Shown here one piece after another: positions 6,005 to 45,804 of a DNA stretch of 64,000 bases. Under the pieces are notes generated by a model. It was not told the origin of the DNA, searched no databases, and worked only from the letters and a program-made list of their open reading frames with translations. Source of the DNA: Halothiobacillaceae bacterium (GTDB lineage: Bacteria; Pseudomonadota; Gammaproteobacteria; Halothiobacillales; Halothiobacillaceae); contig JBKHDT010000007.1 in NCBI GenBank assembly GCA_046541195.1, positions 1,008 to 65,007 of the forward strand, in the 5' to 3' direction. How positions within the stretch are numbered: position 1 is the first letter of the stretch; each line of letters begins with the position of its first letter. Made by a program: the position numbers and the translations under genes.

Positions 6005-7324
6005 TCAATCGTTCTCGTCTGTCATCGGGCTGCGCGGCCCTGTCGGTGCCGTGCGGGCAGTGGCGGGCTGCCGGTCCGGATTTGACGCGCCCTCGCTGAA
6101 AAGCCGCTCGGCCACCAGCGCGATCACGGCACGTGCCAGCGTGGTCTTGTCGGTGCGGGGCAGTACCCGCTCCCCCCCTGGCCAGAGTACCAGCAGCGCG
6201 TTGTCCTCGCGGTCGAAACCCTGGCCGTTGGCCACGTCGTTGGCGCAAATCATGTCCAGCCCCTTGCGCTCAAGCTTCGAGCGGGCATTGGCCCGCAGGT
6301 TGTCCGTTTCCGCGGCGAAGCCGACCACGAAGGGGCGCGGTGATCCGGCAGCCACCTGCGACAGGATATCCGGGTTCTCGACCAGCGAGAGCGTCATCCC
6401 GGCACCGGTCTTCTTGATTTTCCGTTCACTTGGCTGCGCGACCCGGTAATCCGCCACCGCCGCGGCGCCGATGAACAGATCCGCCGGCAGGGCCGCCTCA
6501 ACCGCCCGGGCCATCTGCTTGGCCGTTTCCACATCCACGCGCCGGACCCCGTCGGGCACCGGCAGGCGGGTCGGGCCACTGACGAGGGTGACCCGGGCAC
6601 CGGCTTCGGCGGCGGCTGCGGCCAGGGCATGACCCATGCGGCCCGACGAGCGATTGGCAATGTAGCGCACCGGGTCGATCGGCTCGCGGGTTCCCCCGGC
6701 AGTCACCAGCACGTTCCGCCCGGCCAGCGCACCTGCCGGGCGATCGGGGCGGTCGGCCGATTCGGTCGCCTCCGGCGTGGCCAGGCGCTTGACCAGGGCC
6801 TCGAGGATTTCCTCGGGTTCGGACATGCGCCCATCGCCGGTTTCGCCGCAGGCCTGCGCACCCGTGCCGGGCCCGATGATCCCGACACCCCGGCTGCGCA
6901 GGCTGTCGACGTTGTCCCGAACCGCCGGATGCGCCCACATGACGCGGTTCATGGCCGGCGCGACCAGCACCGGCGCCTCGGTGGCGAGCACCAGGGTGGT
7001 CAGCAGATCATCCGCCATGCCCGCGGCCAGTCGGGCCATCGTGCCCGCCGTGGCCGGGGCGATCAGCAGCGCGTCGGCCCAGCGCGCCAGCTCGATATGA
7101 CTCATGCCCGCCTCGGCAGCCTCGTCGAAAAGCGCCACGCGCACCGGCGCACCGGAGAGTGCCTGGAAGGTCAGCGGGGAGACAAACCGCGTCGCCGATT
7201 CGGTCATCACCACCCGGACCGAGGCCCCGGCGTCCCGAAGCTGGCGCAGCAGTATGCAGGACTTGTACGCGGCAATGCCGCCGCAAATCCCGAGGATGAC
7301 CTGTCGACCGGAAAGATTCATCAT
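6005..7324 (-). CDS. coaBC: Bifunctional phosphopantothenoylcysteine decarboxylase / phosphopantothenate-cysteine ligase
   Basis: 439 aa. Flavoprotein N-domain [14 protein letters not shown]...TFQALSG and a C-terminal CoaB ligase domain ([25 protein letters not shown]). About 30 aa of low-complexity C-terminal tail. Confidence 0.93.
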
Positions 7325-7379: not shown

Positions 7380-7931
7380 ATGAACGCCCAACCTGAACAG
7401 CCAGTCCCCCCCAAACGACGACGCCTGCCGCGATGGCTGCGCTGGAGCCTGGATATCGCGCTGATTGTCGGCGTATTCCTGATCGTCCGCGCCTGGATGA
7501 GTCCGGCGGTCAGCGAGGGACCCGCCCCGCCACTTTCCGGCCTTGATCTGCAAGGCGCTCCGGTTTCGCTGTCCGAGTACCGGGGCGCGCCGCTGCTGGT
7601 CGTCTTCTGGGCGGAATGGTGCCGGATCTGCCGTCTGGAAATGCCCATGATCAGGCGCGTGGCAGAAGACTGGCCGGTACTGACCGTCGCCATGCAGTCC
7701 GGAGACCAGGGCACCGTGCGTCGGTTCGTCGCCGAATCAGGCTGGGAAGACCTGCGGGTGCTCAATGACCCGGATGCCAGCCAGGCACGCCAGTGGGGCG
7801 TCAAGGGCGTACCCGTGATGTATGTGCTCGACGGCGCCGGGCAGATCCGTTTCGTGGAGACCGGGCTGACCACCAGCTGGGGGCTGCGCGCACGCCTGTG
7901 GTGGGCCGCCCGTCACTCAAGCGCCGAATGA
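7380..7931 (+). CDS. Membrane-anchored thioredoxin-fold thiol:disulfide oxidoreductase (TlpA/ResA-like)
   Basis: 183 aa. One N-terminal TM helix (WSLDIALIVGVFLIV). Thioredoxin fold with a WCRIC CxxC motif and a downstream GVKGVP cis-Pro loop. Confidence 0.75.
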   Translation: MNAQPEQPVPPKRRRLPRWLRWSLDIALIVGVFLIVRAWMSPAVSEGPAPPLSGLDLQGAPVSLSEYRGAPLLVVFWAEWCRICRLEMPMIRRVAEDWPVLTVAMQSGDQGTVRRFVAESGWEDLRVLNDPDASQARQWGVKGVPVMYVLDGAGQIRFVETGLTTSWGLRARLWWAARHSSAE

Positions 7932-14292: not shown

Positions 14293-14425
14293 TTCCCTGC
14301 ACCTTGCCGCGGTTAAAAAACTTCCTGGCATGGCATGATGCGCTGCACCCGGCCAGCGCGCAGAACGCCCGGCGCCAGCGCCGTTGGCGGGCAACTCAAT
14401 ACCCAGGGAGGACAATGGCAACCCC

Positions 14426-15217
14426 ATGCGCGTGATCAGCTTTAATGCCAATGGCATCCGTTCGGCAGCGAAAAAAGGCTTTTTTGACTGGCTCGCCGGA
14501 CAGGACGCCGACTTTGTCTGCATCCAGGAAACCAAGGCACAGGCCCGGCAGCTTGAAGACCCGCTTTTTTACCCGGCGGGCTACCACTGCATCTACGTCG
14601 ACGCCGAGCGCAAGGGATACAGCGGCGTGGCGCTGTACAGCCGTGAAGAGCCGGACGCGGTGACCACCAGCCTGGGGCTGGAGGAGTTCGACCGGGAAGG
14701 GCGCTATGTGGAAATCCAGGTCGGAGCGCTCGCGCTGGCGTCACTCTACCTGCCGTCGGGCTCGGCGGGGGATCATCGCCAGGCTTCCAAGGACCGGTTT
14801 CTCGAAGCCTACCTGCCGATGCTCCAGGAAAAGAAGGCCCAGGCCGGCGAGTTCATTCTCTGCGGAGACTGGAATATCGCCCACCGGGAGATCGACCTGA
14901 AAAACTGGCGCAGCAACCGCAAGAGCTCCGGTTTCCTGCCGCATGAACGCGCCTGGCTCGACCGGGTCTTCGACGACATCGGCCTGGTCGATGCGCACCG
15001 CGTGGTCGAACCGGACACGGAGGTCTACACCTGGTGGTCCAACCGCGCAAACGCCTGGGCCAACAATGTCGGCTGGCGAATCGACTACCAGATCGTGACA
15101 CCCGGCCTTGCCGACCGCGTAGCACGCGCGTGGGTCTACCGGGACGAAAAGTTCTCGGATCACGCCCCGCTGATCATCGACTACGCCCCCCGGCCGCAGG
15201 ATGGCCAGCCGACCTGA
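14426..15217 (+). CDS. xthA: Exodeoxyribonuclease III
   Basis: Trimmed to MRVISFNANGIRSA... EEP-nuclease blocks FVCIQETK, LCGDWNIAH, SDHAPL. GGGAGGA lies upstream. Confidence 0.9.
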   Translation: MRVISFNANGIRSAAKKGFFDWLAGQDADFVCIQETKAQARQLEDPLFYPAGYHCIYVDAERKGYSGVALYSREEPDAVTTSLGLEEFDREGRYVEIQVGALALASLYLPSGSAGDHRQASKDRFLEAYLPMLQEKKAQAGEFILCGDWNIAHREIDLKNWRSNRKSSGFLPHERAWLDRVFDDIGLVDAHRVVEPDTEVYTWWSNRANAWANNVGWRIDYQIVTPGLADRVARAWVYRDEKFSDHAPLIIDYAPRPQDGQPT

Positions 15218-35475: not shown

Positions 35476-37239
35476 CTACATCTCCTCCGGGGCACCGACG
35501 CCCAGCAGCCTCAATCCGTTGGCCAGGACCTGGCGCGTCGCCGCCACCAGCGAAAGCCGGGCATTGCGCAAGCCTGCATCCTCGACCAGGAAGGCATGGG
35601 CGTTGTAGTAGGTGTGAAAATCGTTCGCCAGATCCCGCAGGAAGTGGATCAGCTGGTGCGGCTCGTGCGCCAGGGCTGCCCGCTCCACCAGCTCGGGATA
35701 TTGCCCCAGGCGCTTGAGCAGATCCTGCTCATGGGTCTCGAGCAGGCGGTCGAAGTGCGCCGTTCCCTCTGCTCGGTCATGCGCCCAGCCCCGCTGCCTG
35801 AGCTGGCGGAACACGCTGCAAACGCGGGCATGGGCGTACTGGATGTAGTACAGCGGATTTTCGTTCGACTGGCTGCGGGCCAGGTCGAGGTCAAAGTCCA
35901 GGTGCTGTTCGGCACGACGCATCACGTAGAAGAACCGGGCCGCGTCGTTGCCGACTTCCTCCCGCAGCGCCCGCAGGGTGACAAAGCTGCCTGAACGGGT
36001 CGACATCTGCACCCGCTCGCCACCGCGGTAGAGGATGGCGAACTGGACCAGCAGGACGTCCAGGTGTTCCGGGTCGTGCCCAAGCGCCCGGAGCGCGGCC
36101 CGTACACGGGGAACATAACCATGGTGATCCGCCCCCCAGACATCGATGACCCGCTCGAAGCCGCGGTCAAACTTGTCCATGTGGTAGGCGATGTCCGAGG
36201 CGAAATAGGTGGTCTGGCCGTTGTCACGCTGAACCACCCGGTCCTTGTCGTCCCCGAAATCGGTCGATCGAAACCACAGCGCGCCGTCACGCTCGTAGAC
36301 GTGCCCCAGTTCGCGCAGCCGTTCGATGGCCAGGTTGACCAGCCCCCGATCGGCCAGCGACTGCTCGGAGTACCATTCCTGGTAGTTGACCCCGAATCCC
36401 GACAGATCATCGCGGATATCATCGAGAATGGCATTCAACGCCAGCTCGAAGACGTAGCGGTACCGGTTGTCGCCCAGAATCTCCCGGGCCCGCCCGATCA
36501 GGGCGTCGATGTGCTCCTCCCGGTCGCCGCCCGCCGGCTCGTCCGGGGGCACGCCCTCGAAGACCAATGCCGCAGGGGCTGCATAATCCGCACCATGCTC
36601 GGCATGCAGGGTGCGGGCAATGTCCACGATGTACCCCTCGGAACGGTAGCCATTGACGGGAAAGGCAAACGACTCGCCGCACAACTCGAGGTAGCGCAGC
36701 CAGACACTGGTTGCCAGAATGTGCATCTGCCGGCCGGCATCGTTGACGTAGTATTCGCGATGCACCTCGAAGCCGACCGCCTCGAGCAGATCCGCGACCA
36801 CCGCACCATAGGCCGCCCCGCGGCCATGGCCGACATGCAGCGGGCCGGTGGGATTGGCGGAGACAAACTCGACCTGCACCCGGCGGCCCGCCCCGATCGC
36901 ACTGCGCCCCCAGCGGGCGCCGCTTTCAAGGATTCGGTCGATCAGCGCGAATCCGGCCGCCGGGTCCACGAAGAAGTTGACGAACCCCGGGCCGGCGATC
37001 TCTACCTTGCAGATGGCCGGGTCTTTCGGCAGCGCCTCAACCAGCAGCCGGGCGGCCTCGCGCGGGTTCAGGCCCATCGGCTTGGCCAGCTGGAGCGCAA
37101 GATTCGTGGCCAGATCACCGTGCGCGCGGTCTCGGGTCGGGGTCACGACAATCTTCGGGGCGGATTCCTCGGCCACCTGTCCGGAGGACTTCAGGGCGGC
37201 GAGCGCCGAGGCCAGCAAGGATTCGACATGTTCTTTCAC
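35476..37239 (-). CDS. argS: Arginine--tRNA ligase
   Basis: Class I motifs [14 protein letters not shown] and QMSTRSG, with a DALR anticodon-binding C-terminus ending in M. The track ORF runs to 37365. The in-frame GTG at 37239 (VKEHVESLL...) aligns with family N-termini, but no strong SD is seen, so the start is uncertain. Confidence 0.92.
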
Positions 37240-37516
37240 GGGGTTTACCGGGGTCTTGGTGGGCGACAATTGCGCAGGGTCGCCCTCCCGACGGGGACGA
37301 ACCGAGGCCGGGATTCTACCTCCGAGGGTGGCAGGGCGGCAAAGCCGCTGGCCGGCGCCGGGCACAATTCACCGCCCCGGCCCGGCAAAGACTGCTCGCC
37401 CGCGACCGGAATGCGGCACGGCAACCCGGGGCTCCGAGGGGGTTTTTTTATACAAGGCCTATACGCTTCCTGCTAATCTTGCGTCCCACGACTCCCAAGC
37501 AACACGGTAACCGCCC

Positions 37517-38134
37517 ATGCACGAACACCCGTCAGAGGACGACTTCCCCGAACCGGCCGGCGAAGACCGGCAGCGGCTTGAAAGGCTTGAGCAGGCCTAC
37601 CGGACCATTCTGGACGCCCTGGGCGAGGAGGCAGACCGCGAAGGACTGATCGACACGCCGAAACGGGCCGCCAAGGCGATGCTCTACCTGACGCACGGGT
37701 TGCACAAGCCGGTCGAGGCAGCGGTCGGAAATGCCCTGTTCGCTTCCGACAACGACGAGATGGTGGTCGTGCGCCGCATTGAGTTTTACAGTCTCTGCGA
37801 GCACCACCTGCTGCCGATCATCGGGCACGTCGACATCGGCTACATCCCGGACGGCAAGGTCATCGGCCTGTCCAAGCTGGCGCGGATTGTCGAACTCTAC
37901 GCGCGGCGGCTGCAGATCCAGGAAAACATGACCCGGCAGATCGCCGACACGATCGCCGAGGCCACCGGCGCGCGCGGGGTGGCCGTGCAGGTCCGCGCCG
38001 CCCACATGTGCATGAGCATGCGCGGCGTGGAGAAGCACGAGGCCGAGACGATTACCTCGATGATGCTCGGCGCCTTCCGCGACTGCCCGGCCACCCGCAA
38101 CGAGTTCCTGCAGCTGATCAGCCACCGCCCATGA
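37517..38134 (+). CDS. folE: GTP cyclohydrolase I (type 1)
   Basis: 205 aa. [11 protein letters not shown] zinc/active-site motif, [18 protein letters not shown]. Confidence 0.93.
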
Positions 38135-38841
38135 ACGCGCAGGCGCCGAGAATCCTGATCACCGGAGTCGGCCGGCGCATCGGTGCCCACCTCGCCAGCC
38201 ACTGCCTCGACCGGGGCTGGCAGGTGACCGGCAGCTGCCGGGACCGGAGCACGCCCACGGTACGCGCGCTGGTCGAACGCGGCATGACGGCGATCGAGTG
38301 CGAACTCACCGACCCTGCCTCGGTGGCCGCGATGGCGGACCGGGTCCGGGCAGACGGACGACTCCACGCCTTGGTGCACAATGCCTCCGTCTGGCATCGC
38401 GATGCGCAGGTTGCGGAATCACCCAGGCTGGCCGAGGAACTGTTCGCGGTGCACGTGCGCACGCCCTGGGCGCTCAGCGAGGCGCTGGCACCGCTGCTGG
38501 ACGACCCGGATCACCCCGGCAACATCGTGTTCATCACGGACGCGAACATTGCGCACGGCAAGCCGGAGCACATGCTGTACCTGGCCACCAAGGCCGGCGC
38601 CGAATCGCTGGTGCGCTCCATGGCGCGCCGGTACGCACCGGGCATCCGTGTCAACGGCATTGCACCTGGCCTGATCCTGTTTCATCCCGAAGATGACGAG
38701 CAGTACCGGCAGCGCCGGCTGGCCAAGCGGCTCCTGCCCTTCGAGCCCGGTCCGTCGGTGATCGCCCAGTCGCTGGACTACCTGCTCGACTGCCCCTACC
38801 TGACCGGAACCGTCCTGCGCGTCGACGGCGGCAAGCTCTGA
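38131..38841 (+). CDS. folM: Short-chain dehydrogenase, pteridine/dihydromonapterin reductase-like (FolM-like)
   Basis: 236 aa after trimming to the ATG that overlaps the folE stop (ATGA at 38131-38134). Rossmann motif [11 protein letters not shown]. Catalytic Y-x3-K (YLATK). The folE coupling suggests a pterin substrate; substrate specificity is inferred. Confidence 0.65.
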
Positions 38842-38950
38842 CGTCCGCCGGTCACGCGGCGGCGGACCGGGCGATCGGGCCGCCAGCACGCTTGGGCCGC
38901 CCCCCCGCCCCCCGTTATCATGCCCAATCGCTCGCAACGTGGAACCCGGC

Positions 38951-40183
38951 ATGATCCAGGTCGTCACCGCCATCCGCTCCCTGCTGCTCGGCATGGGCAT
39001 CCTGCTGGCCGGTTCCGGCCTGCTCGGCACCCTCCTGGGCCTGCGGGCCGGCGAGGAAGGCTTTCCGCAGTGGGTCACGGGCATCGTGATGTCCGCCTTC
39101 TTTGTCGGCTACATCATCGGCTCCTGGCTGTGCCCGAAGATCATTCACCGGGTCGGGCACATCCGCACCTTTGCGGTCATGGCGACGATATCAAGCGTGG
39201 TGGCCCTGCTGCACGGGATGGTGGTCGACCCCTACGCCTGGTGGTGGTTGCGGGTCCTCAACGGCATCAGCCTGCTCGGGCTGTACATGGTGATCGAAAG
39301 CTGGCTCAACGAGACAGTGACCGACCAGCGCGGCCAGATCTTCGGCATCTACATGACCATCAGCCTGCTGGCCCTGGGTGCAGGCCAGTTCCTGATCCTG
39401 CTTTACGGGCCCATGGACCTGGCCTCATTCGCGCTGGTGGCCATTTTGTTCTCGCTGGGCTTGCTGCCGGTGGCGCTGACCCGCAGGCCGCAGCCGCAAC
39501 CGATCGCCACCGGCGCCCTGTCCTTGGTGACGCTCTACCGCAAGGCGCCCACCGGGGTGGCGGGTGCCCTGCTGTCGGGCGTGGTCACCGGGGCCTTCTG
39601 GGGAATGGGGGCGGTCTACGCGCACGACCTCGCGCTCAGTCCCCAGATGGTGGCGACCTTCATTGCGCTGACGATCCTGGGCGGTGCCCTGCTGCAGTGG
39701 CCGCTGGGCAAGCTGTCGGACAACCGTGACCGCCGGATCGTGATGTCCGGCATCTCGCTGGCCGGCGCCCTCTGCGCCATTGCACTGCTGGCCGTGCAGC
39801 CGGCGGCAGACACCCTGCTGCTGATCGTGGCACTGCTCTATGGCGGGTTTTCCTTCTCGCTCTACGCGATCAGCGTCGCACAGACCCATGACCGCCTGGG
39901 GCAGGGCCAGGTGCTCGAAGGCACACGGGCGCTGCTGCTGCTCAACGGCATTGGAGCGGCGTTGGGGCCGCTGCTCGCCGGAGGGCTGATGCAGTGGCTC
40001 GGCAGCGCCCGCGGCTTTCCTCTGGCACTGCTCATGACCCTGATGGCGCTGGCGACGTTCGTGCACTGGCGGATGCAGGTGGACAAGCCGGTCCCGGAAA
40101 CCGAGCGGGGCGAATTCGTGCCGGTCACCCGCACCTCGGCGGTCGCCGCCGAACTCGATCCGCGCACGCCGGACCCGGACTGA
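38951..40183 (+). CDS. MFS transporter (YcaD-like)
   Basis: About 410 aa and 12 predicted TM helices. Has the MFS loop 2-3 signature region. Start is GTG 38939 or ATG 38951. Confidence 0.8.
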   Translation: MIQVVTAIRSLLLGMGILLAGSGLLGTLLGLRAGEEGFPQWVTGIVMSAFFVGYIIGSWLCPKIIHRVGHIRTFAVMATISSVVALLHGMVVDPYAWWWLRVLNGISLLGLYMVIESWLNETVTDQRGQIFGIYMTISLLALGAGQFLILLYGPMDLASFALVAILFSLGLLPVALTRRPQPQPIATGALSLVTLYRKAPTGVAGALLSGVVTGAFWGMGAVYAHDLALSPQMVATFIALTILGGALLQWPLGKLSDNRDRRIVMSGISLAGALCAIALLAVQPAADTLLLIVALLYGGFSFSLYAISVAQTHDRLGQGQVLEGTRALLLLNGIGAALGPLLAGGLMQWLGSARGFPLALLMTLMALATFVHWRMQVDKPVPETERGEFVPVTRTSAVAAELDPRTPDPD

Positions 40184-40201
40184 CACCCAACCGGCCGGTG
40201 C

Positions 40202-40633
40202 TCAGCGAGCCGCCAGGCGTCGGCGCAGCAGGCGCATCAACGATCCGAGCAACGGCACGCGCTCGTACAGCTGGCCGGCCGGGTCCCAGTCATCCACGTG
40301 ATCGACTACCCGCCCGCGGTCATCAAACCGGAGGGTCGTGCACCCCTCGACTGCCAGCGGGTTCCTGCCCCTGGTAGCACAGCGCATCCGCCAGCGGATC
40401 ATGGCCACGGGCTGGCCATCGTGCTCGCCGGAGAGGGCCAGGAGAATCTCGAACCGCATGCCGGGACACTGCTCGAGCCCGTGGGCGAAGAGATGGCGGA
40501 TGGCTGCCAGCCCGCGCAAGTCGTTGAAGGGATCGCGAAAGCGGGCATCCTCCGCATAGATCGTCCCGAACCCGTCCAGCGAATCGGGGCCAAACTGCTC
40601 GAAGAAGGCACAGTAGCGTTCCAGCGGCGTCAT
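40202..40633 (-). CDS. SnoaL-like / NTF2-fold protein
   Basis: About 143 aa from MTPLERYCAFFEQ... Pattern ...YAEDARFRDPFN...L.F...G.V..H.D.WD is typical of the NTF2-like family often found in SDR/cfa clusters. ATGA overlap with the SDR stop. Confidence 0.55.
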   Translation of the reverse strand: MTPLERYCAFFEQFGPDSLDGFGTIYAEDARFRDPFNDLRGLAAIRHLFAHGLEQCPGMRFEILLALSGEHDGQPVAMIRWRMRCATRGRNPLAVEGCTTLRFDDRGRVVDHVDDWDPAGQLYERVPLLGSLMRLLRRRLAAR

Positions 40634-41382
40634 TCGCGCAGCATCCGTCTTGCGAGCGGAAACCACAGCGCGTAGGGCAGCCGGGTGATTCGACGCATGA
40701 ACCAGGTGAACAGCCGGGGCGTTCGAATCTCGAACCCGGGCCGGTCCAGGGCGCGGACGATCGCCGCCGCCGCCTCGGCCGGCTCGATCAGCCCGGGCAT
40801 CTCGAAATCGTTCTGTGCCGTCAGCGCCGTGCGCACGAATCCGGGATTGACGATCCGCAGGCGCACCCCGCCGCGGGCGAACTCCGGCGCGAGCGACTCG
40901 GTCATGTTGATCAGCGCCGCCTTGCTTGCACCGTAGGGCGCGGCATACGGCAGGCCCCGATAGCCGGCCACGCTGCCCATCACCAGAATCTGGCCCCGCC
41001 CGCGAGTCAGCATCGGCACGCGCAGGGCATCGAGCCCGTGCACCACGCCCTGGAAATTCACCATCATCAGCCGGGCGAAGGCCTCGGGATCAAAGTCGGC
41101 CAGCTCCATGGGGCGGTAGTCACCGGCGTTGAGCACCGCGACGCCGACCGGACCCCATTCCCGCTCGATGTGCGCCACGGCGGCCCGCATGCTTGCCAGG
41201 TCGGTCACGTCGACCGGCAGGGGCAGGACCTGCCCGGGACTGTCCGCCGCGCGCGCCTCGAGCCGCTCTGCACGCCGCGCGGAGATCACCACGCGATGCC
41301 CGCGCTCGACCAGCCGATCCACCAGCGCGGCGCCGATGCCGCTGCTGGCGCCCACCACCCAGGTCACCTGCTCACCCTGCAT
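40630..41382 (-). CDS. SDR-family oxidoreductase
   Basis: Trimmed to MQGEQVTWVV..., with GGGAGGG upstream. Motifs VVGASSGIGAAL, NAG and catalytic YGASK. Confidence 0.85.
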   Translation of the reverse strand: MQGEQVTWVVGASSGIGAALVDRLVERGHRVVISARRAERLEARAADSPGQVLPLPVDVTDLASMRAAVAHIEREWGPVGVAVLNAGDYRPMELADFDPEAFARLMMVNFQGVVHGLDALRVPMLTRGRGQILVMGSVAGYRGLPYAAPYGASKAALINMTESLAPEFARGGVRLRIVNPGFVRTALTAQNDFEMPGLIEPAEAAAAIVRALDRPGFEIRTPRLFTWFMRRITRLPYALWFPLARRMLRE

Positions 41383-41560
41383 CAGCCTGCCCTCCCGTTT
41401 GCCCCGGCAGCCACGCACGGCCGCCAATCATTGCGCCACATCCGCATTGCGGGCGCAGCCGGCAGCCCCCTGGACGGCGCGGTGGCGGCATCCAGCCCGG
41501 CATGCCCCGCAGCCTGTGACCCGGCGGGGTGGTCCGGGTGAACCGGCGCGCAATTTTCGA

Positions 41561-41573
41561 TACAATACTTGTA
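41561..41573. promoter_or_regulatory. Inverted repeat TACAA-N3-TTGTA in the divergent SDR / MerR-like promoter region (candidate operator)
   Basis: TACAATACTTGTA lies in an unusually AT-rich patch (TTTTCGATACAATACTTGTACCACATGCTACACT) 52 nt upstream of the MerR-like start codon. TACACT is a possible -10 element. Confidence 0.25.
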
Positions 41574-41624
41574 CCACATGCTACACTCAAGTCCACCCAA
41601 CGAGATGAACCAGTGACCGGCCCC

Positions 41625-42539
41625 ATGTCCATCGACTCCAAGCAGCCAGAACACGACGGACTGTACCCGATCCGCGCGGTCGCGCAGATGACCGGGATCA
41701 ACCCGATCACGCTGCGCGCCTGGGAGCGGCGCTACGGGCTGATTCGTCCCCTGCGCACCGACTCGGGGCACCGCCTGTACAGCCAGCGGGACGTGGATCG
41801 GATTCGCCGGATCCTGGAGCTGAGCGAGCAGGGCGTGGCACTCGCCCAGGTGAGCCGGGTGCTGGAAAGCGAACAGGGTTCGCAGCCCGGGGCTGCGCCC
41901 GGCCCGGCCGGCACCGGGGCACGCGCGGTCCGGGAACAGGAAACCCTCGGGCAGATCCTGGATGACGCGCTGGAAGAGATCAGCGAGATCCGGCTGCAGG
42001 CATTTCTGGATGAGGCGCTGCGCTGGCTGCCACCGGTCCGGGTGCTCCAGCAATGGTTGCTGCCTGCCTGCCGGAAGCTGGGCGAACAAAGGCAGCAGGA
42101 TGCCGAGGCCGCCCTGCGCCACCTGTGGCTGATTGAGCGCACCCGGCAGCTTGTCCAGGGCGTGCTGAGCCACCGGGCCGGGACCGAGGCTCCGGTGCTG
42201 GTTGCCACCGTGGCGCCGGAGCATGACCGTCTGCCCGCCCTGTCGCTCGCCACCGAGCTGCTGGGCCGGGGTGCAGGCTGCCGGCTGCTGGAAACACCCA
42301 CCGGGATCGACGTGATCCTGCAGGCACACCACCGCTGGCGGTGCCGGGCGGTGGTGCTCTGTGCCGAGGCGGGGCTCCCGGTTTCCGTGACCGGCCCCCA
42401 TCACGAGGCGCTGAGCGGCCTGGGCAGCGGACTGTTCGTGCTGTCCGGCGCGTTCGATGGCGCGCTTTGGCCTGCCAATGCGCGCGTTCTGGAGCCGGAT
42501 TCGACCACCATGCTGGACAAGGTACTCGCCACCCATTGA
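41625..42539 (+). CDS. MerR-family transcriptional regulator with a LitR/CarH-like C-terminal domain and a degenerate B12-binding motif
   Basis: N-terminal MerR HTH YPIRAVAQMTGINPITLRAWERRYGLIRPLRTDSGHRLYS. The C-terminal part has a Rossmann-like VLVATVAPEHDRLPALSLATELLGRGAGCRLL segment where B12-binding proteins carry E-x-H-x-x-G; here it reads E-H-D-R-L-P. Start is ATG 41625 or GTG 41613. Confidence 0.8.
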   Translation: MSIDSKQPEHDGLYPIRAVAQMTGINPITLRAWERRYGLIRPLRTDSGHRLYSQRDVDRIRRILELSEQGVALAQVSRVLESEQGSQPGAAPGPAGTGARAVREQETLGQILDDALEEISEIRLQAFLDEALRWLPPVRVLQQWLLPACRKLGEQRQQDAEAALRHLWLIERTRQLVQGVLSHRAGTEAPVLVATVAPEHDRLPALSLATELLGRGAGCRLLETPTGIDVILQAHHRWRCRAVVLCAEAGLPVSVTGPHHEALSGLGSGLFVLSGAFDGALWPANARVLEPDSTTMLDKVLATH

Positions 42540-42722
42540 GCCGCTTTGCCCGCGGCAGTCCGTTCATCGCGGCCGCGCAGGTTGGGCACGCCGGTTCAAC
42601 AGCCATCCGGTTTTCGGCTAAACTGCCTGGTATCCGTAATGTCCTGGCCGCAGGGGCGCCGGCGCGTACGGTTCGCGTCCCGCTCCGATGGCCCGGCAAA
42701 CTCCCTGCGCCGGAAACCAACG

Positions 42723-43175
42723 ATGCTCAAACCCGAGTTGCTGCTCAAGGTCGTCAACGCATCCAACGACGGCATGGTCATTGCCGAACAGGAAGGCGAC
42801 GACAACATCCTGATCTACGTGAATGCGGCATTCGAACGACTCTCTGGATATGACCGGGACGAAATCCTCTACCAGGATTGCCGCTTTCTGCAGGCCGATG
42901 ACCGTGACCAGCCCGGGCTGGGGCAGATCCGGCAGGCGATCGCGGCGGGCAAACCGGTCCGCGCGGTGCTGAGAAACTACCGCAAGGACGGCAGTCTGTT
43001 CTGGAACGAGTTGTCCATCACGCCGGTATTCAATGAAGAGGACAACCTCACCTACTTCATCGGCATCCAGAAGGACGTGTCCGAGAACGTCGCGCTGCGC
43101 GAGGAGGTCGAGGCCCTGCGCAAGCGCGTCGCCCAGCTCGAGGCCCGGCTGGCCGGCGAAGAGCCGGCCGGCTGA
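42723..43175 (+). CDS. Short LOV-domain blue-light photoreceptor (FMN-binding PAS plus a J-alpha/coiled-coil tail, no effector domain)
   Basis: 150 aa after trimming. Blocks NASNDGMVIAEQEGDDNILIYVNAAF..LSGY.RDEILYQDCRFLQ..DRDQ...NYRKDGS.FWNELSITPV......YFIGIQKDVS contain the photoactive Cys in the (N/D)CRFLQ motif. They closely match what I recall of the Pseudomonas putida PpSB1/PpSB2 short LOV proteins. Confidence 0.9.
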   Translation: MLKPELLLKVVNASNDGMVIAEQEGDDNILIYVNAAFERLSGYDRDEILYQDCRFLQADDRDQPGLGQIRQAIAAGKPVRAVLRNYRKDGSLFWNELSITPVFNEEDNLTYFIGIQKDVSENVALREEVEALRKRVAQLEARLAGEEPAG

Positions 43176-43197: not shown

Positions 43198-44052
43198 TCA
43201 GAACTCCATCTGGCCGGGGCGCCGGGGACGGTGCACTCCCTCGTCCGGCTGCGCGGACGGCAGCGGCTCCTCGTTTCCAGACCCCGGCGATCCGGCCGAA
43301 CCGGAAACTTCCCCGAACACGGACTGGTATGCGGCGTACACCGCGGCGACCATCACCGGGACAAACAGGATCAGCCCCAGGCCCATCGGCATCATCGCCA
43401 GCATCCCCAGGCCCGCGCTCACCAGCCCGAAGACCAGAAACGCGCCCAGATTGGCCGCAATGGCAGCCAGGCTTTGCCTGAGCGCGGCCAGCGCCGGTTG
43501 GCCGCCCAGCGCCGCCAGCGGCACGGCAAAGGTCATGGCGGCCATCCACAGGGCCCAGCCGGCAAACAGCAGCAACCACGCCCAGGGGGACACCCCGGCG
43601 ATCATCGCCTTCAGCTGCTCCTGATCGATTTCCTGCAAGATCGCCGGGTCCTCGGGCAACGACATCGTCGTGACCAGCAGCACCGCCAGGAAAAAGTTGA
43701 CCAGCAGGCTCAAGCCTCCAAGCGACAGCAACGGCCCGCGGCGCGCAGGTTCCGTCAGACCGTCGAACAGCAGCGAAAGGGGCACACCCTGCTCACGAGC
43801 CAGCGGGTCGACGGCCACATCCCGACGCACCTGAGCGATGCGGTCGACCAGAAGGTACAGGCCGCCCACGAGGGCCGGAGTCACGACCATCGAGATCAGC
43901 GAACCGATGAACGGCACCAGAGACAAGGCAAGCTGCACCAGGATCATCACGATCAGGGCGAGCAGCAGCGCCCCCGGCCGGCTGGCAAACAACCGCCAGC
44001 CCTCGACGATCCATTGCCAGCCCGCACCCGCGGACACCTTGCGATAATTCAT
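43198..44052 (-). CDS. Integral membrane protein (BPSS1780/DUF2189-like)
   Basis: Trimmed to MNYRKVSAGAGWQWIVEGWRLF..., an N-terminal signature typical of that family. About 6 TM helices. Ser/Gly/Pro-rich tail. Confidence 0.55.
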   Translation of the reverse strand: MNYRKVSAGAGWQWIVEGWRLFASRPGALLLALIVMILVQLALSLVPFIGSLISMVVTPALVGGLYLLVDRIAQVRRDVAVDPLAREQGVPLSLLFDGLTEPARRGPLLSLGGLSLLVNFFLAVLLVTTMSLPEDPAILQEIDQEQLKAMIAGVSPWAWLLLFAGWALWMAAMTFAVPLAALGGQPALAALRQSLAAIAANLGAFLVFGLVSAGLGMLAMMPMGLGLILFVPVMVAAVYAAYQSVFGEVSGSAGSPGSGNEEPLPSAQPDEGVHRPRRPGQMEF

Positions 44053-44528
44053 CCTGCACCTGTCCTTGAGCCGGAACGACATGCCCGGCACCCCTGTGAA
44101 TTTCAAGCCGCCCGCCGGGTCGGGGCAGGCCTCTGATCAGGCCCAAAGCATACCAGCGACGCCGCCGGGAGGGGACTGGCCGCGCGTTCCGACCCCGGAA
44201 AGCGCCTTGAATCCCACGCAGATCACCGGGAATGCCGCATCTGGGCCAGAGACGGGGCTTGACCTGCGATGACCAACAGGGTTTGATCCGGGCTCGAAGA
44301 ATTCACCGAAACCCGGGCTTGCCGGTGTCACGGGAACCGTCTCAGGACCCGGTCACCGGGCATCCGCACCAGGTCGCCTGAGCGGTCGCAGGCAGGACGG
44401 CAGGGGATACGGCCGTCCCTCGGGAATTCCTCGTGACACCGATACCCTGCGTGCCCGTCGCAGGACTTGATGGCACCAGGCGCCTCGCCCGCGAGGCGCG
44501 CCGGGCCGAAACGGAGGATGCACCAAGA

Positions 44529-45275
44529 ATGCGCAACGCACTGATTTTCGACGTCGACGGCACACTCGCCGACACCGAGCGGGACGGTCACCGGATCGCC
44601 TTCAACCGGGCCTTTGCCGAGGCCGGGCTTGACTGGAACTGGGACATCCATACCTATGGCCGGCTGCTCGCCGTCACCGGCGGCAAGGAGCGCATCCGCC
44701 ATTTCATCGAAACCGACGATCCGCCGCTGCCGGCCACCAGCGACCTGGCCGACTGGATTGCCGGCATGCACCGGGCCAAGACCCGCCACTACGTGGCCAT
44801 GATGCAGGAAGGCCGGATTCCCCTGCGCCCCGGCGTCGCCCGGTTGATCCACGCGGCGCGCGACGCCGGCATGACCCTGGCGATTGCCACGACCACCACG
44901 CCCGAGAATGTCGAAGCGCTTCTTTGCGCGACGCTCGGCGCCGAGTCGCCCGGCTGGTTTTCCTGCATCGCGGCCGGCGACATCGTTCCGGCCAAGAAGC
45001 CCGCGCCGGACATCTACGATTACGTGCTTGCGCAACTGGACATTCCCTCGGACGAGGCGCTGGCGCTCGAGGATTCGCGCAATGGCCTGCGTTCGGCTCG
45101 CGGTGCCGAACTCGACACGCTGATCACCGTCAATGACTATACCCGGGAAGAGGATTTTGGCGGGGCGCTGGCGGTACTCGACCACCTGGGCGAACCGGAC
45201 GCGCACTGCACGACGTTGCAGGGGATCGCGCCGCCGGAAGGCTACGTGACCCTGAACTACCTGCGCCAGCTTTAG
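44529..45275 (+). CDS. cbbY: HAD-family phosphatase, CbbY-like
   Basis: Trimmed to MRNALIFDVDGTLADTERDGHRIAFNRAF, with GGAGGA upstream. HAD motifs I-IV are present. The TYGRLLAVTGGKERI block is typical of CbbY. Confidence 0.75.
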   Translation: MRNALIFDVDGTLADTERDGHRIAFNRAFAEAGLDWNWDIHTYGRLLAVTGGKERIRHFIETDDPPLPATSDLADWIAGMHRAKTRHYVAMMQEGRIPLRPGVARLIHAARDAGMTLAIATTTTPENVEALLCATLGAESPGWFSCIAAGDIVPAKKPAPDIYDYVLAQLDIPSDEALALEDSRNGLRSARGAELDTLITVNDYTREEDFGGALAVLDHLGEPDAHCTTLQGIAPPEGYVTLNYLRQL

Positions 45276-45414
45276 AGCACGCGCGGGCGCCGGACGTTCG
45301 CAAGACCGGCATGACCGTTGCGGTTTGCTACACTGGACAATCGATCCGGCATGTCCCCGGACGCGCACCAGGCATCACGGGTCCATTTCTTTTCAGCCGA
45401 CGGAAAATCACTTC

Positions 45415-45804
45415 ATGACCACGACCGCCGACTTCGACTACGACAACTTCGTGGACCAGCTCGAGGAGGTCATCTACTGGCACCAGGCCTGGCACATGCG
45501 TCTTGTGGGCGCGCTGCTTTTCGGGCGGCCCTTCGTCGATGTGGATCACCACCAGTGTCACTTCGGAAGGTTCCTGGACACCACGGACACCCCCCCGGGC
45601 CGGGATGACCAGATCAACCAGATCGGACAGCTGCATGCACGCATGCACGAGCTGGCGGAGGAGATGCTCATCGAGATGCGCGAGAATCGGCGCGTCGACG
45701 AAGAACAGTTCGACGAGTTCATGGAGTCGCAGAGCCTGTTTTTCACGGTCACCGGAGGCCTGCTGCGCTCGGCGATCGAGGACCGGATGCGGGCGGCCGA
45801 CTGA
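45415..45804 (+). CDS. Stand-alone chemoreceptor zinc-binding (CZB) domain protein
   Basis: 129 aa. H-x19-C-x-F-G-x-F-L ... H-x3-H spacing (WHMRL...HHQCHFGRFL...LHARMHEL) matches the CZB zinc-ligand pattern. No other domain present. Confidence 0.6.
   Translation: MTTTADFDYDNFVDQLEEVIYWHQAWHMRLVGALLFGRPFVDVDHHQCHFGRFLDTTDTPPGRDDQINQIGQLHARMHELAEEMLIEMRENRRVDEEQFDEFMESQSLFFTVTGGLLRSAIEDRMRAAD

Follow-up and report, generated by a model that had tools for sequence, protein, structure and literature searches.

Can a MerR-type regulator that has lost its vitamin B12-binding residues still place genes under the control of light? The question is raised by a 64,000-nucleotide stretch of contig JBKHDT010000007.1 (assembly GCA_046541195.1, positions 1,008 to 65,007 of the forward strand) from a Halothiobacillaceae bacterium, hereafter called the window. 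Seven consecutive genes at positions 37517-43175 of the window include a regulator of the LitR/CarH family and, directly behind it, a short LOV photoreceptor. An earlier reading of the letters alone (the original prediction) had proposed that these genes form a light-response cluster in which the LOV protein is the partner of the B12-less regulator. We consider it probable that the locus is a blue-light anti-repressor switch of the Pseudomonas mendocina type. Such a switch has been known from Pseudomonas since 2022; what is new is the host, a sulfur-oxidizing member of the Halothiobacillaceae. Particular to this locus are the C-terminal lineage of the regulator, the tandem order of the two genes, and a window lacking photolyase and cfa genes. 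The identities of the genes, the fold of the regulator, the loss of its B12 residues, the conserved adjacency of regulator and LOV gene, and the conserved operator-like sites were established in this work.

Genes were called from a list of open reading frames (ORFs) together with Pfam and NCBIfam profile scans of the window proteins. The seven genes are, in order:

37517-38134, + strand: folE, GTP cyclohydrolase I (type I), 205 amino acids (aa); PF01227, E 3e-72; TIGR00063, 235 bits.
38131-38841, + strand: folM-like short-chain dehydrogenase/reductase (SDR), dihydromonapterin/pteridine reductase-like, 236 aa; NF005066, 233.6 bits.
38939-40183, + strand: MFS_1 (major facilitator superfamily, MFS) transporter, 414 aa; PF07690, E 3e-27; alternative ATG at 38951.
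40202-40633, − strand: SnoaL_2/NTF2-like protein, 143 aa; PF12680, E 4e-17; the start is the ATG that overlaps the SDR stop.
40630-41382, − strand: classical SDR, 250 aa; PF00106, E 2e-45; heads the SDR-SnoaL pair, divergent from the regulator.
41625-42539, + strand: LitR/CarH-family MerR regulator, 304 aa; PF13411, E 1e-17, and PF00376, E 2e-11 (residues 14-82).
42723-43175, + strand: short LOV photoreceptor, 150 aa; PAS_9, E 1e-22; YtvA-family LOV region (NCBIfam), E 5e-44.

The ORF list and the profile scans agree with the original prediction on all seven genes, both in position and in identity. Its further descriptions also held: a translationally coupled folE-folM pair adjoining an MFS gene, a 150-aa LOV protein with the photoactive cysteine motif and no output domain, a CarH-like C-terminal domain with a degenerate histidine motif, and an SDR plus NTF2-like pair of the kind found in photolyase/cfa clusters. 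The evidence for each is given below.

The LOV protein aligned without gaps to short LOV structures, best to 7r5n (E 3e-61) and also to PpSB1-LOV (3sw1/29lw, E 3e-57 to 5e-57), to which it is ~70% identical. All flavin and adduct residues are present (C53, R54, Q57, R61, R70, N85, N95, and Q116 in PpSB1 numbering). The protein is laid out as an N-cap, a core with Cys53 in the motif YQDCRFLQ, and a J-alpha region (residues 120-150) that aligns with 7r5n. Pfam gave PAS-family matches alone (residues 6-122), and no effector domain was found. By its sequence, the protein is thus a photoactive short LOV with predicted FMN binding and a predicted photocycle. Residue 66 is Arg in PpSB1-LOV, which recovers slowly in the dark, and Ile in the fast PpSB2-LOV, with R61 kept. 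In the window protein this residue is Leu (42918-42920), from which an intermediate adduct lifetime may be expected.

The LOV gene begins 183 bp 3' of the regulator gene on the same strand. The spacer is poorly conserved except for a few stretches, among them a block shared with a related contig from a metagenome-assembled genome (MAG; locus L001):

42593-42628, + strand: promoter-like block in the MerR-LOV spacer, TTCAAC (42595-42600)-N18-TAAACT (42619-42624); GGTTCAACAG...TTTTCGGCTAAACTGCC kept in L001.

This block falls under the threshold of the promoter scanner. It suggests that the LOV gene probably has its own, likely constitutive, promoter; in P. mendocina, expression of pmSB-LOV is constitutive (PMC9758184).

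The start codon of the regulator is supported by 100% identity and coverage to an NCBI protein of a Halothiobacillaceae MAG. At normal thresholds, Pfam recognized the MerR helix-turn-helix (HTH) alone. The NCBIfam CarH model matched residues 10-267 with 80.7 bits, far under its cut-off of 400 bits, and phmmer aligned residues 11-254 with Thermus thermophilus CarH (TtCarH, 5c8d; E 7e-16). An AlphaFold model from a 72-sequence alignment (pLDDT 88.7) begins with a winged HTH (wHTH; residues 1-84); after a disordered linker come a four-helix bundle (residues 99-183) and, at 191-303, a Rossmann-like domain. The top Foldseek matches of this model were the TtCarH structures 5c8f/5c8d/5c8e (E 1e-14), and the isolated cobalamin-binding domain 8c73 was matched with a TM score of 0.75 relative to that domain. 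By predicted fold and by its HTH, the regulator is a member of the LitR/CarH family.

Its cobalamin site has decayed. Arg stands in place of the upper-face Trp, Arg-His in place of Glu-His, Asp in place of the axial His, and Pro in place of Gly, whereas homologues of the B12 type (both Pfam B12 domains, n = 14) keep the Trp in 14/14, the axial His in 13/14, and the motif Gly in 12/14 cases. The B12-binding domain PF02310 was not detected in the regulator even at E values up to 10. The B12-binding_2 domain (PF02607) gave E 0.033 over residues 113-158, a match about as weak as that of P0104 (E 0.053, same Pfam release), a 321-aa PmlR2-like homologue of the P. mendocina type to which the regulator is 39% identical over 204 aa. 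Since the class I LitR/CarH cobalamin signature (Wx9EH, ExHxxG) is absent, the regulator does not belong to class I. Two traits of class II are present, namely a remnant similarity to B12-binding_2 without a recognizable B12-binding domain and an adjoining orthologous short LOV gene, and by analogy the regulator would work like a class II LitR.

How a class II LitR works has been described for P. mendocina NBRC 14162, in which the genes for the class II LitR PmlR2 and the short LOV protein PmSB-LOV lie near each other, next to folM-folE-folX (Maruyama et al., 2022; PMC9758184). PmlR2 represses by binding to promoters with T(G/A)TACA hexamers, for which the operator form T(G/A)TACA-N12-TGTA(C/T)A was published. 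Illuminated PmSB-LOV, but not its C53A mutant, binds PmlR2's N-terminal (HTH) domain; this abolishes DNA binding in surface plasmon resonance and relieves repression in a run-off assay, with folM-folE among the promoters (PMC9758184). Upon illumination, folM and folE were induced 2.4- to 3.3-fold and the phrB-ufaM operon ~25- to 33-fold (PMC9758184). As cited in the same paper, earlier work on P. putida had found the LOV genes, and not B12, to be needed for PplR-dependent light induction. The statement in the original prediction that light sensing by a B12-less LitR is not settled was therefore out of date, as biochemical work published in 2022 had demonstrated anti-repression by LOV (PMC9758184). 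Its two-protein photoswitch is supported by homology to PmSB-LOV/PmlR2 and amounts to a rediscovery. The view that the module had not been described in autotrophs fits the literature searched, in which we found no paper on LOV proteins or light responses in Halothiobacillaceae.

The pairing of the two genes was followed through 80 genomic loci fetched around relatives of the LOV gene and searched with the window proteins, the neighborhood being defined as 3.5 kb from the LOV gene (L and P numbers denote fetched loci and proteins of this analysis). Of the 53 best-matching loci (LOV 51-89% identical), 38 had a LitR-like MerR gene in this neighborhood, among them loci of Pseudomonas, Halopseudomonas, Stutzerimonas, Guyparkeria, Halothiobacillus sp. 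DCM-1, Thiothrix, Oceanobacter, and Bacterioplanes. The LOV-MerR adjacency is thus conserved well beyond this genome, a point on which the original prediction had made itself refutable. None of the 27 more distant LOV loci (cyanobacteria, Bacteroidota, and others) had a LitR-like gene near LOV. The window LOV is 60-72% identical to the LOV genes of Pseudomonas in the fetched loci, and the LOV-LitR module is common among Halothiobacillaceae genomes.

The block MFS-SnoaL-SDR<>MerR-LOV (<> marking divergent genes) is common to the window and to the Guyparkeria/Halothiobacillaceae loci L003, L004, L005, and L013, with nothing shared on either side; Halothiobacillus sp. DCM-1 (L039) has the block minus the MFS gene. 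Tandem MerR-LOV genes recur in the loci of nearer relatives of the regulator (L081, L082, L084, and L086). The closest full-length relative is the regulator of L086 (42% identical), and 47 bp behind it begins a gene starting with MLKPELLLKAVNASNDGTVIAEQEGDDNIL, of which 28/30 residues match the window LOV. L084 has MerR-LOV, L082 has FolB-folE<>MerR-LOV, and in L081 (Halothiobacillaceae MAG GCA_049968075.1, 1-10328), where the MerR and LOV genes overlap by 14 bp, the order is photolyase-FolM-like SDR-unknown 249 aa-FolB-folE<>MerR-LOV-photolyase-DUF2256-DPRP-MFS. The light island of L081 is much fuller than that of the window and provides a good reference locus for the family. Genes for folE or folM lie within a few kb of LitR-LOV in L002, L009, L011, L024, L030, L032, L050/L081, L071, and L082. 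As it recurs across genera, the grouping of these genes cannot be put down to chance.

Orthologous short LOV genes (65-73% identical) also occur in Thioalkalivibrio (L033, L045-L049) and Marinospirillum (L016/L018/L042), where the fetched flanks contain no LitR-like gene. In T. paradoxus ARh 1 (L087), a photolyase gene is immediately preceded by a LitR-like MerR gene, and the 15-kb locus contains no LOV gene. Such genomes indicate that the partners can be unlinked.

An alignment of the LitR-like homologues over regulator residues 138-215 revealed sharply distinct C-terminal lineages: the B12 type (W...AEEHFF, PGExHExG), the Pseudomonas type 'HCRELELL', 'LPP-ERGLF', 'wPDRD', the Thioalkalivibrio type 'GHRRIGG', and the window type. 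At least four B12-less LitR-like lineages are encoded beside orthologous LOV genes. The sequence of the C-terminal domain underlies the published LitR classes. By pairwise identity, in a comparison without class III-V references, the C-terminal domain of the window regulator forms a small lineage of its own with P0002 and P0003. The HTH of the four B12-less, LOV-adjacent lineages is 59-74% identical to that of the window regulator. A conserved HTH beside a drifting C-terminal domain is consistent with LOV acting on the HTH, a fit that is not specific, as the HTH of the B12 type is equally similar (62%).

These lineages bear on the best-surviving alternative, in which the regulator and the LOV protein would be co-localized for one stress or light regulon and would not touch each other; LOV would act via another partner, and the regulator would answer to redox or to a small ligand in its degenerate Rossmann pocket. 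Such an arrangement would suit a C-terminal domain with ~20% identity to every characterized group, the orthologous LOV genes of Thioalkalivibrio and Marinospirillum that have no LitR gene nearby, and the LitR-like gene that T. paradoxus keeps beside a photolyase gene in a locus free of LOV. The contact mapped in P. mendocina, however, is on the N-terminal HTH and not on the C-terminus, and it is the HTH that is well conserved across all groups. Furthermore, tandem and sometimes overlapping MerR-LOV genes suggest stoichiometric co-expression of partners. We regard regulation without contact as unlikely. Equally little credence is given to an extension of the anti-repressor switch. In it, at least four LitR lineages with strongly diverged C-terminal domains (Pseudomonas class II, 'LPP-ERG', 'wPDRD', and the window type) have a short LOV protein as partner, and the complete CarH-like Rossmann/four-helix module of the window type, which no longer binds B12 in the canonical way, might hold a second input, a cofactor or redox signal, and integrate blue light with a metabolic cue. 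If this were true, a non-phototrophic, sulfur-oxidizing autotroph would gain light-gated pterin synthesis, and possibly pterin export via the conserved MFS transporter.

Which genes the switch would control is suggested by their identity and position. FolE scored above the curated cut-off of its family model (TIGR00063, 235 bits vs. 181.6). The FolM-like SDR matched dihydromonapterin reductase best (NF005066, 233.6 bits, just under the cut-off of 249), followed by pteridine reductase (NF006598, 148), and it shares 44% identity with the SDR encoded in the photolyase-folE island L081. The second gene is accordingly annotated as a FolM-like pterin reductase, its assignment to the exact FolM substrate being putative. 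The ATG of folM overlaps the TGA of folE as ATGA, and the ATG of the SnoaL gene overlaps the TGA of the SDR gene in the same way, so each of the two pairs is translationally coupled. Directly after the folM stop begins a perfect 8-bp GC-rich hairpin without a T-run (38842-38863, GTCCGCCG gtcacg CGGCGGAC), which may separate folE-folM from the MFS transcript or stabilize the mRNA. Because of this hairpin, co-transcription of folM and the MFS gene is uncertain. MFS orthologues (56-59% identical) take the same position beside SnoaL in Guyparkeria loci with otherwise different flanks, and this conserved synteny is the one argument that may tie the transporter to light. The original claim of a light-response cluster is supported by the P. 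mendocina precedent, the adjacency, the related islands with folE, MerR-LOV, and photolyases, the SnoaL/SDR pair, and the operator-like sites; it was overstated for the MFS gene, and the window itself has no photolyase or cfa genes.

The SDR of the SnoaL/SDR pair is 58-60% identical to its counterparts in Guyparkeria and Halothiobacillus, and 40% identical to the SDR that heads an amine oxidase-DUF1365-cyclopropane fatty acid (CFA) synthase cluster in the Pseudomonas locus L023. The order there, MerR<>LOV-SnoaL_2-SDR-amine oxidase-DUF1365-CFA synthase, indicates that the pair is of the kind heading a light-induced fatty-acid-modification cluster. The SnoaL-SDR pairing lies next to LOV in both Halothiobacillaceae and Pseudomonas. 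In P. mendocina, the SDR of the equivalent operon was induced 13.7-fold by light (PMC9758184).

In every fetched locus, the 260 bp preceding the LitR-like gene were scored for two hexamers at all spacings. The commonest best solution was a hexamer pair with a 5-base spacing (N5), which corresponds to an 11-bp period. Such pairs scored 12/12 in six Pseudomonas loci (e.g., TGTACAAACTTTGTACA) and 11/12 in Halothiobacillus sp. DCM-1, L050/L081, Thiothrix, and L082; the promoter of the window regulator has the pair GATACAATACTTGTACC (10/12) spanning -66 to -50 from the ATG. The whole 64-kb window was then searched with the pattern TRTAYA-N5-TRTAYA, taken from the other loci, with up to 2 mismatches. 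Three matches were obtained vs. 0.59 expected (37449-37465, 41559-41575, and one in coaBC), and both intergenic matches sit on the strand of the gene they precede, folE and the regulator, respectively. The two sites and the gene that flanks the module on the folE side are:

35476-37365, − strand: argS, outside the module and divergent from folE.
37449-37465, + strand: candidate LitR operator of folE, TATACA-AGGCC-TATACG, with one mismatch; it ends 51 bp before the folE ATG in the argS<>folE intergenic region.
41559-41585, + strand: candidate LitR operator between the divergent SDR and MerR genes, a pair GATACA-N5-TGTACC (41559-41575) that lies 49 bp upstream of the regulator, followed 10 bp further on by GCTACA as a third hexamer.

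The TATACA on the folE side is an exact copy of the published PplR/PmlR half-site (PMC9758184). On the regulator side, the hexamers overlap a weak -35/-10-like sequence, GATACA-N17-TACACT. The block ATTTTCGATACAATAMTTGTACMA at this site is identical in L086 except for the two M positions, while the surrounding sequence cannot be aligned. Its retention next to a regulator of only 42% identity, between unalignable flanks, marks it as a phylogenetic footprint. In the related loci, the 200 bp upstream of the regulator contained the exact published half-site in 8/8 cases (10 matches vs. 0.29 expected). We suggest the hexamer pair with an 11-bp period as a shared operator form.

Several candidates and one test were set aside. 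The third N5 match (7253-7269, TATGCAGGACTTGTACG) lies inside a coaBC-like ORF (6005-7324, − strand), ~55-71 bp from its start and near a divergent thioredoxin-like gene (7380-7931), and was treated as chance. A search of the window for the N12 operator with up to 3 mismatches gave 19 matches, almost all within genes; the best of them, with one mismatch (14616-14639, GATACAGCGGCGTGGCGCTGTACA), is inside the ORF 14384-15217 (+ strand) and probably due to chance. The pattern ATACA-N5-TRTAC occurs at the two sites only (0.00 expected), but it was derived post hoc from those very sites and was replaced by the pattern from other loci. A weight matrix was dropped as a significance test as its Markov null gave similar scores.

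A number of findings weigh against the proposed switch. The site on the regulator side has no exact half-site, with one mismatch each in GATACA and TGTACC, and the published N12 operator (TRTACA-N12-TGTAYA) is absent from both local promoters at up to 3 mismatches. The weight matrix of 11-bp pairs, built from loci other than the window, placed the folE site 1st and the regulator site 4th, but maxima of similar height also arose in Markov-simulated sequence. A promoter and terminator scan found no sigma-70 consensus promoter at either candidate operator. The operator on the regulator side is 177 bp away from the SDR start, so that control of SDR-SnoaL is uncertain. The C-terminal domain of the regulator averages ~17-23% identity (maximum 26%) to Pseudomonas class II and is no closer to it than to the B12 type (20%); only P0003 is closer, with 25-35%. 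Finally, tblastn searches of the 64-kb window gave no match for photolyase, DPRP, DUF2256, FolB, amine oxidase, DUF1365, CFA synthase, DUF3833, or a chalcone-isomerase-like protein. A folX/FolB gene was thus also not found beside the module. The local regulon would therefore comprise no more than folE-folM, SDR-SnoaL, the gene of the regulator itself, and possibly the MFS gene.

The cluster could also be read as having no regulatory unity at all; folE-folM would be housekeeping folate/pterin genes that lie near MerR-LOV by chance, and the hexamers would be noise of AT-rich promoters. The missing folE-folM beside the module in Guyparkeria and Halothiobacillus sp. DCM-1 and the weak hexamer statistics against the Markov null are in line with this. 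On the other hand, folE or folM is found near LitR-LOV in many independent lineages as well as in the P. mendocina locus, and two of the three N5 matches in the window fall into the two predicted promoters, each on the strand of the gene it precedes. We judge a chance assembly very unlikely. The least probable reading, that the regulator itself is the photoreceptor and binds adenosylcobalamin or another corrinoid as CarH does while LOV acts on another target, could draw on the confidently predicted full CarH fold and on H200, one residue before the axial-ligand position in PEHDRLP, but it is made highly improbable by the exchanges Trp to Arg, axial His to Asp, and Gly to Pro at positions kept in 12 to 14 of 14 B12-type homologues, by the failure of PF02310 and the marginal B12-binding_2 match, by the strong adjacency of LOV, which argues for LOV as the sensor, and by the reported dispensability of B12 for PplR-dependent light induction in P. 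putida (as cited in PMC9758184).

The blue-light anti-repressor switch would operate as follows, with the photocycle, the binding of LOV to the regulator, repression, and the choice of light-induced genes inferred by homology. In the dark, the LitR/CarH-type repressor would oligomerize via its CarH-like, B12-less C-terminal domain and bind to T(G/A)TAYA hexamers paired at a distance of 11 bp. One pair would overlap the folE-folM promoter (37449-37465), and the other the divergent promoter region between the regulator and SDR-SnoaL (41559-41585). Under blue light, the short LOV protein would form the Cys53-FMN adduct and bind the HTH domain of the regulator, which would then leave the DNA, and the target genes would be expressed. 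One output would be more GTP cyclohydrolase I and FolM-type pterin reductase, and with them cofactors of the pterin or folate type, which could serve photoprotection or, for instance, photolyases whose genes lie elsewhere in the genome. The other would be the SDR/NTF2-like enzyme pair, whose Pseudomonas homologues head a light-induced furan/cyclopropane fatty-acid cluster. The unit may also include the MFS transporter.

The G+C content is ~64-71% throughout the window, and this uniformity gives no sign of a foreign island; Rfam and tRNA scans of the window found no RNA genes. The region 3' of LOV (43198-45804) encodes a BPSS1780-family membrane protein (NF041043, 134.7 bits vs. a cut-off of 90), a beta-phosphoglucomutase/CbbY-type HAD hydrolase, and a protein with a CZB (chemoreceptor zinc-binding) domain. 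Synteny of these genes was found only in the close relative L001, with no link to the light module, and judging by gene context they are not part of it.

Taken as proposed, the switch extends a proven photoswitch, in which a B12-less LitR has a short LOV protein as its anti-repressor, beyond Pseudomonas into chemolithoautotrophic sulfur oxidizers (Halothiobacillaceae, and also Thiothrix). The LOV partner would have been kept while the former B12 domain of the regulator drifted almost beyond recognition, which fits a LOV contact on the HTH, and pterin synthesis (folE/folM) and the SDR/NTF2-like pair would be recurrent outputs. This is of use in annotation and in selecting soluble orthologues for structures of the LOV-LitR complex; it opens no new question.

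Among the known systems, class I CarH/LitR (TtCarH, PDB 5C8D/5C8E) has a wHTH, a four-helix bundle, and a Rossmann domain in the same arrangement as the regulator. TtCarH binds tandem 11-bp repeats, and the candidate operator resembles such direct repeats with an 11-bp period. Unlike in class I, the cobalamin-binding residues are lost here, so the light input is expected to come from the separate LOV protein and not from B12 photolysis. In E. coli BluF(YcgF)/BluR(YcgE), a separate flavin photoreceptor likewise antagonizes a MerR-family repressor by direct binding, and this pair is listed as the other known case of such antagonism (PMC9758184). However, its sensor is a BLUF-EAL protein and not a LOV protein, its repressor is not of the CarH/LitR type, and its regulon differs.

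The closest systems are those of Pseudomonas. In contrast to them, the host is here a chemolithoautotrophic member of the Halothiobacillaceae, and the regulator and LOV genes are in tandem on one strand, whereas they are divergent or separated by a gene in Pseudomonas. In its C-terminal domain, the regulator has only ~17-20% identity to the Pseudomonas proteins and groups with P0002 and P0003 instead. The spacing of the hexamers is 5 bases compared to the published 12, although N5 pairs also occur in Pseudomonas loci of the pmlR2 type, and the 64-kb window is without folX/FolB, photolyase, or a ufaM cluster. The likenesses concern the core of the switch. As in PmSB-LOV/PmlR2 and in the PpSB1/2-LOV proteins of P. 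putida KT2440 with PplR1-3, an orthologous short LOV stands beside a MerR/LitR regulator without B12 residues. The folE and folM genes lie beside the LOV-regulator pair as in PmSB-LOV/PmlR2, homologues of SnoaL/SDR directly follow the LOV gene in loci of the P. putida group, and half-sites of the T(G/A)TACA type are found in the promoters of both.

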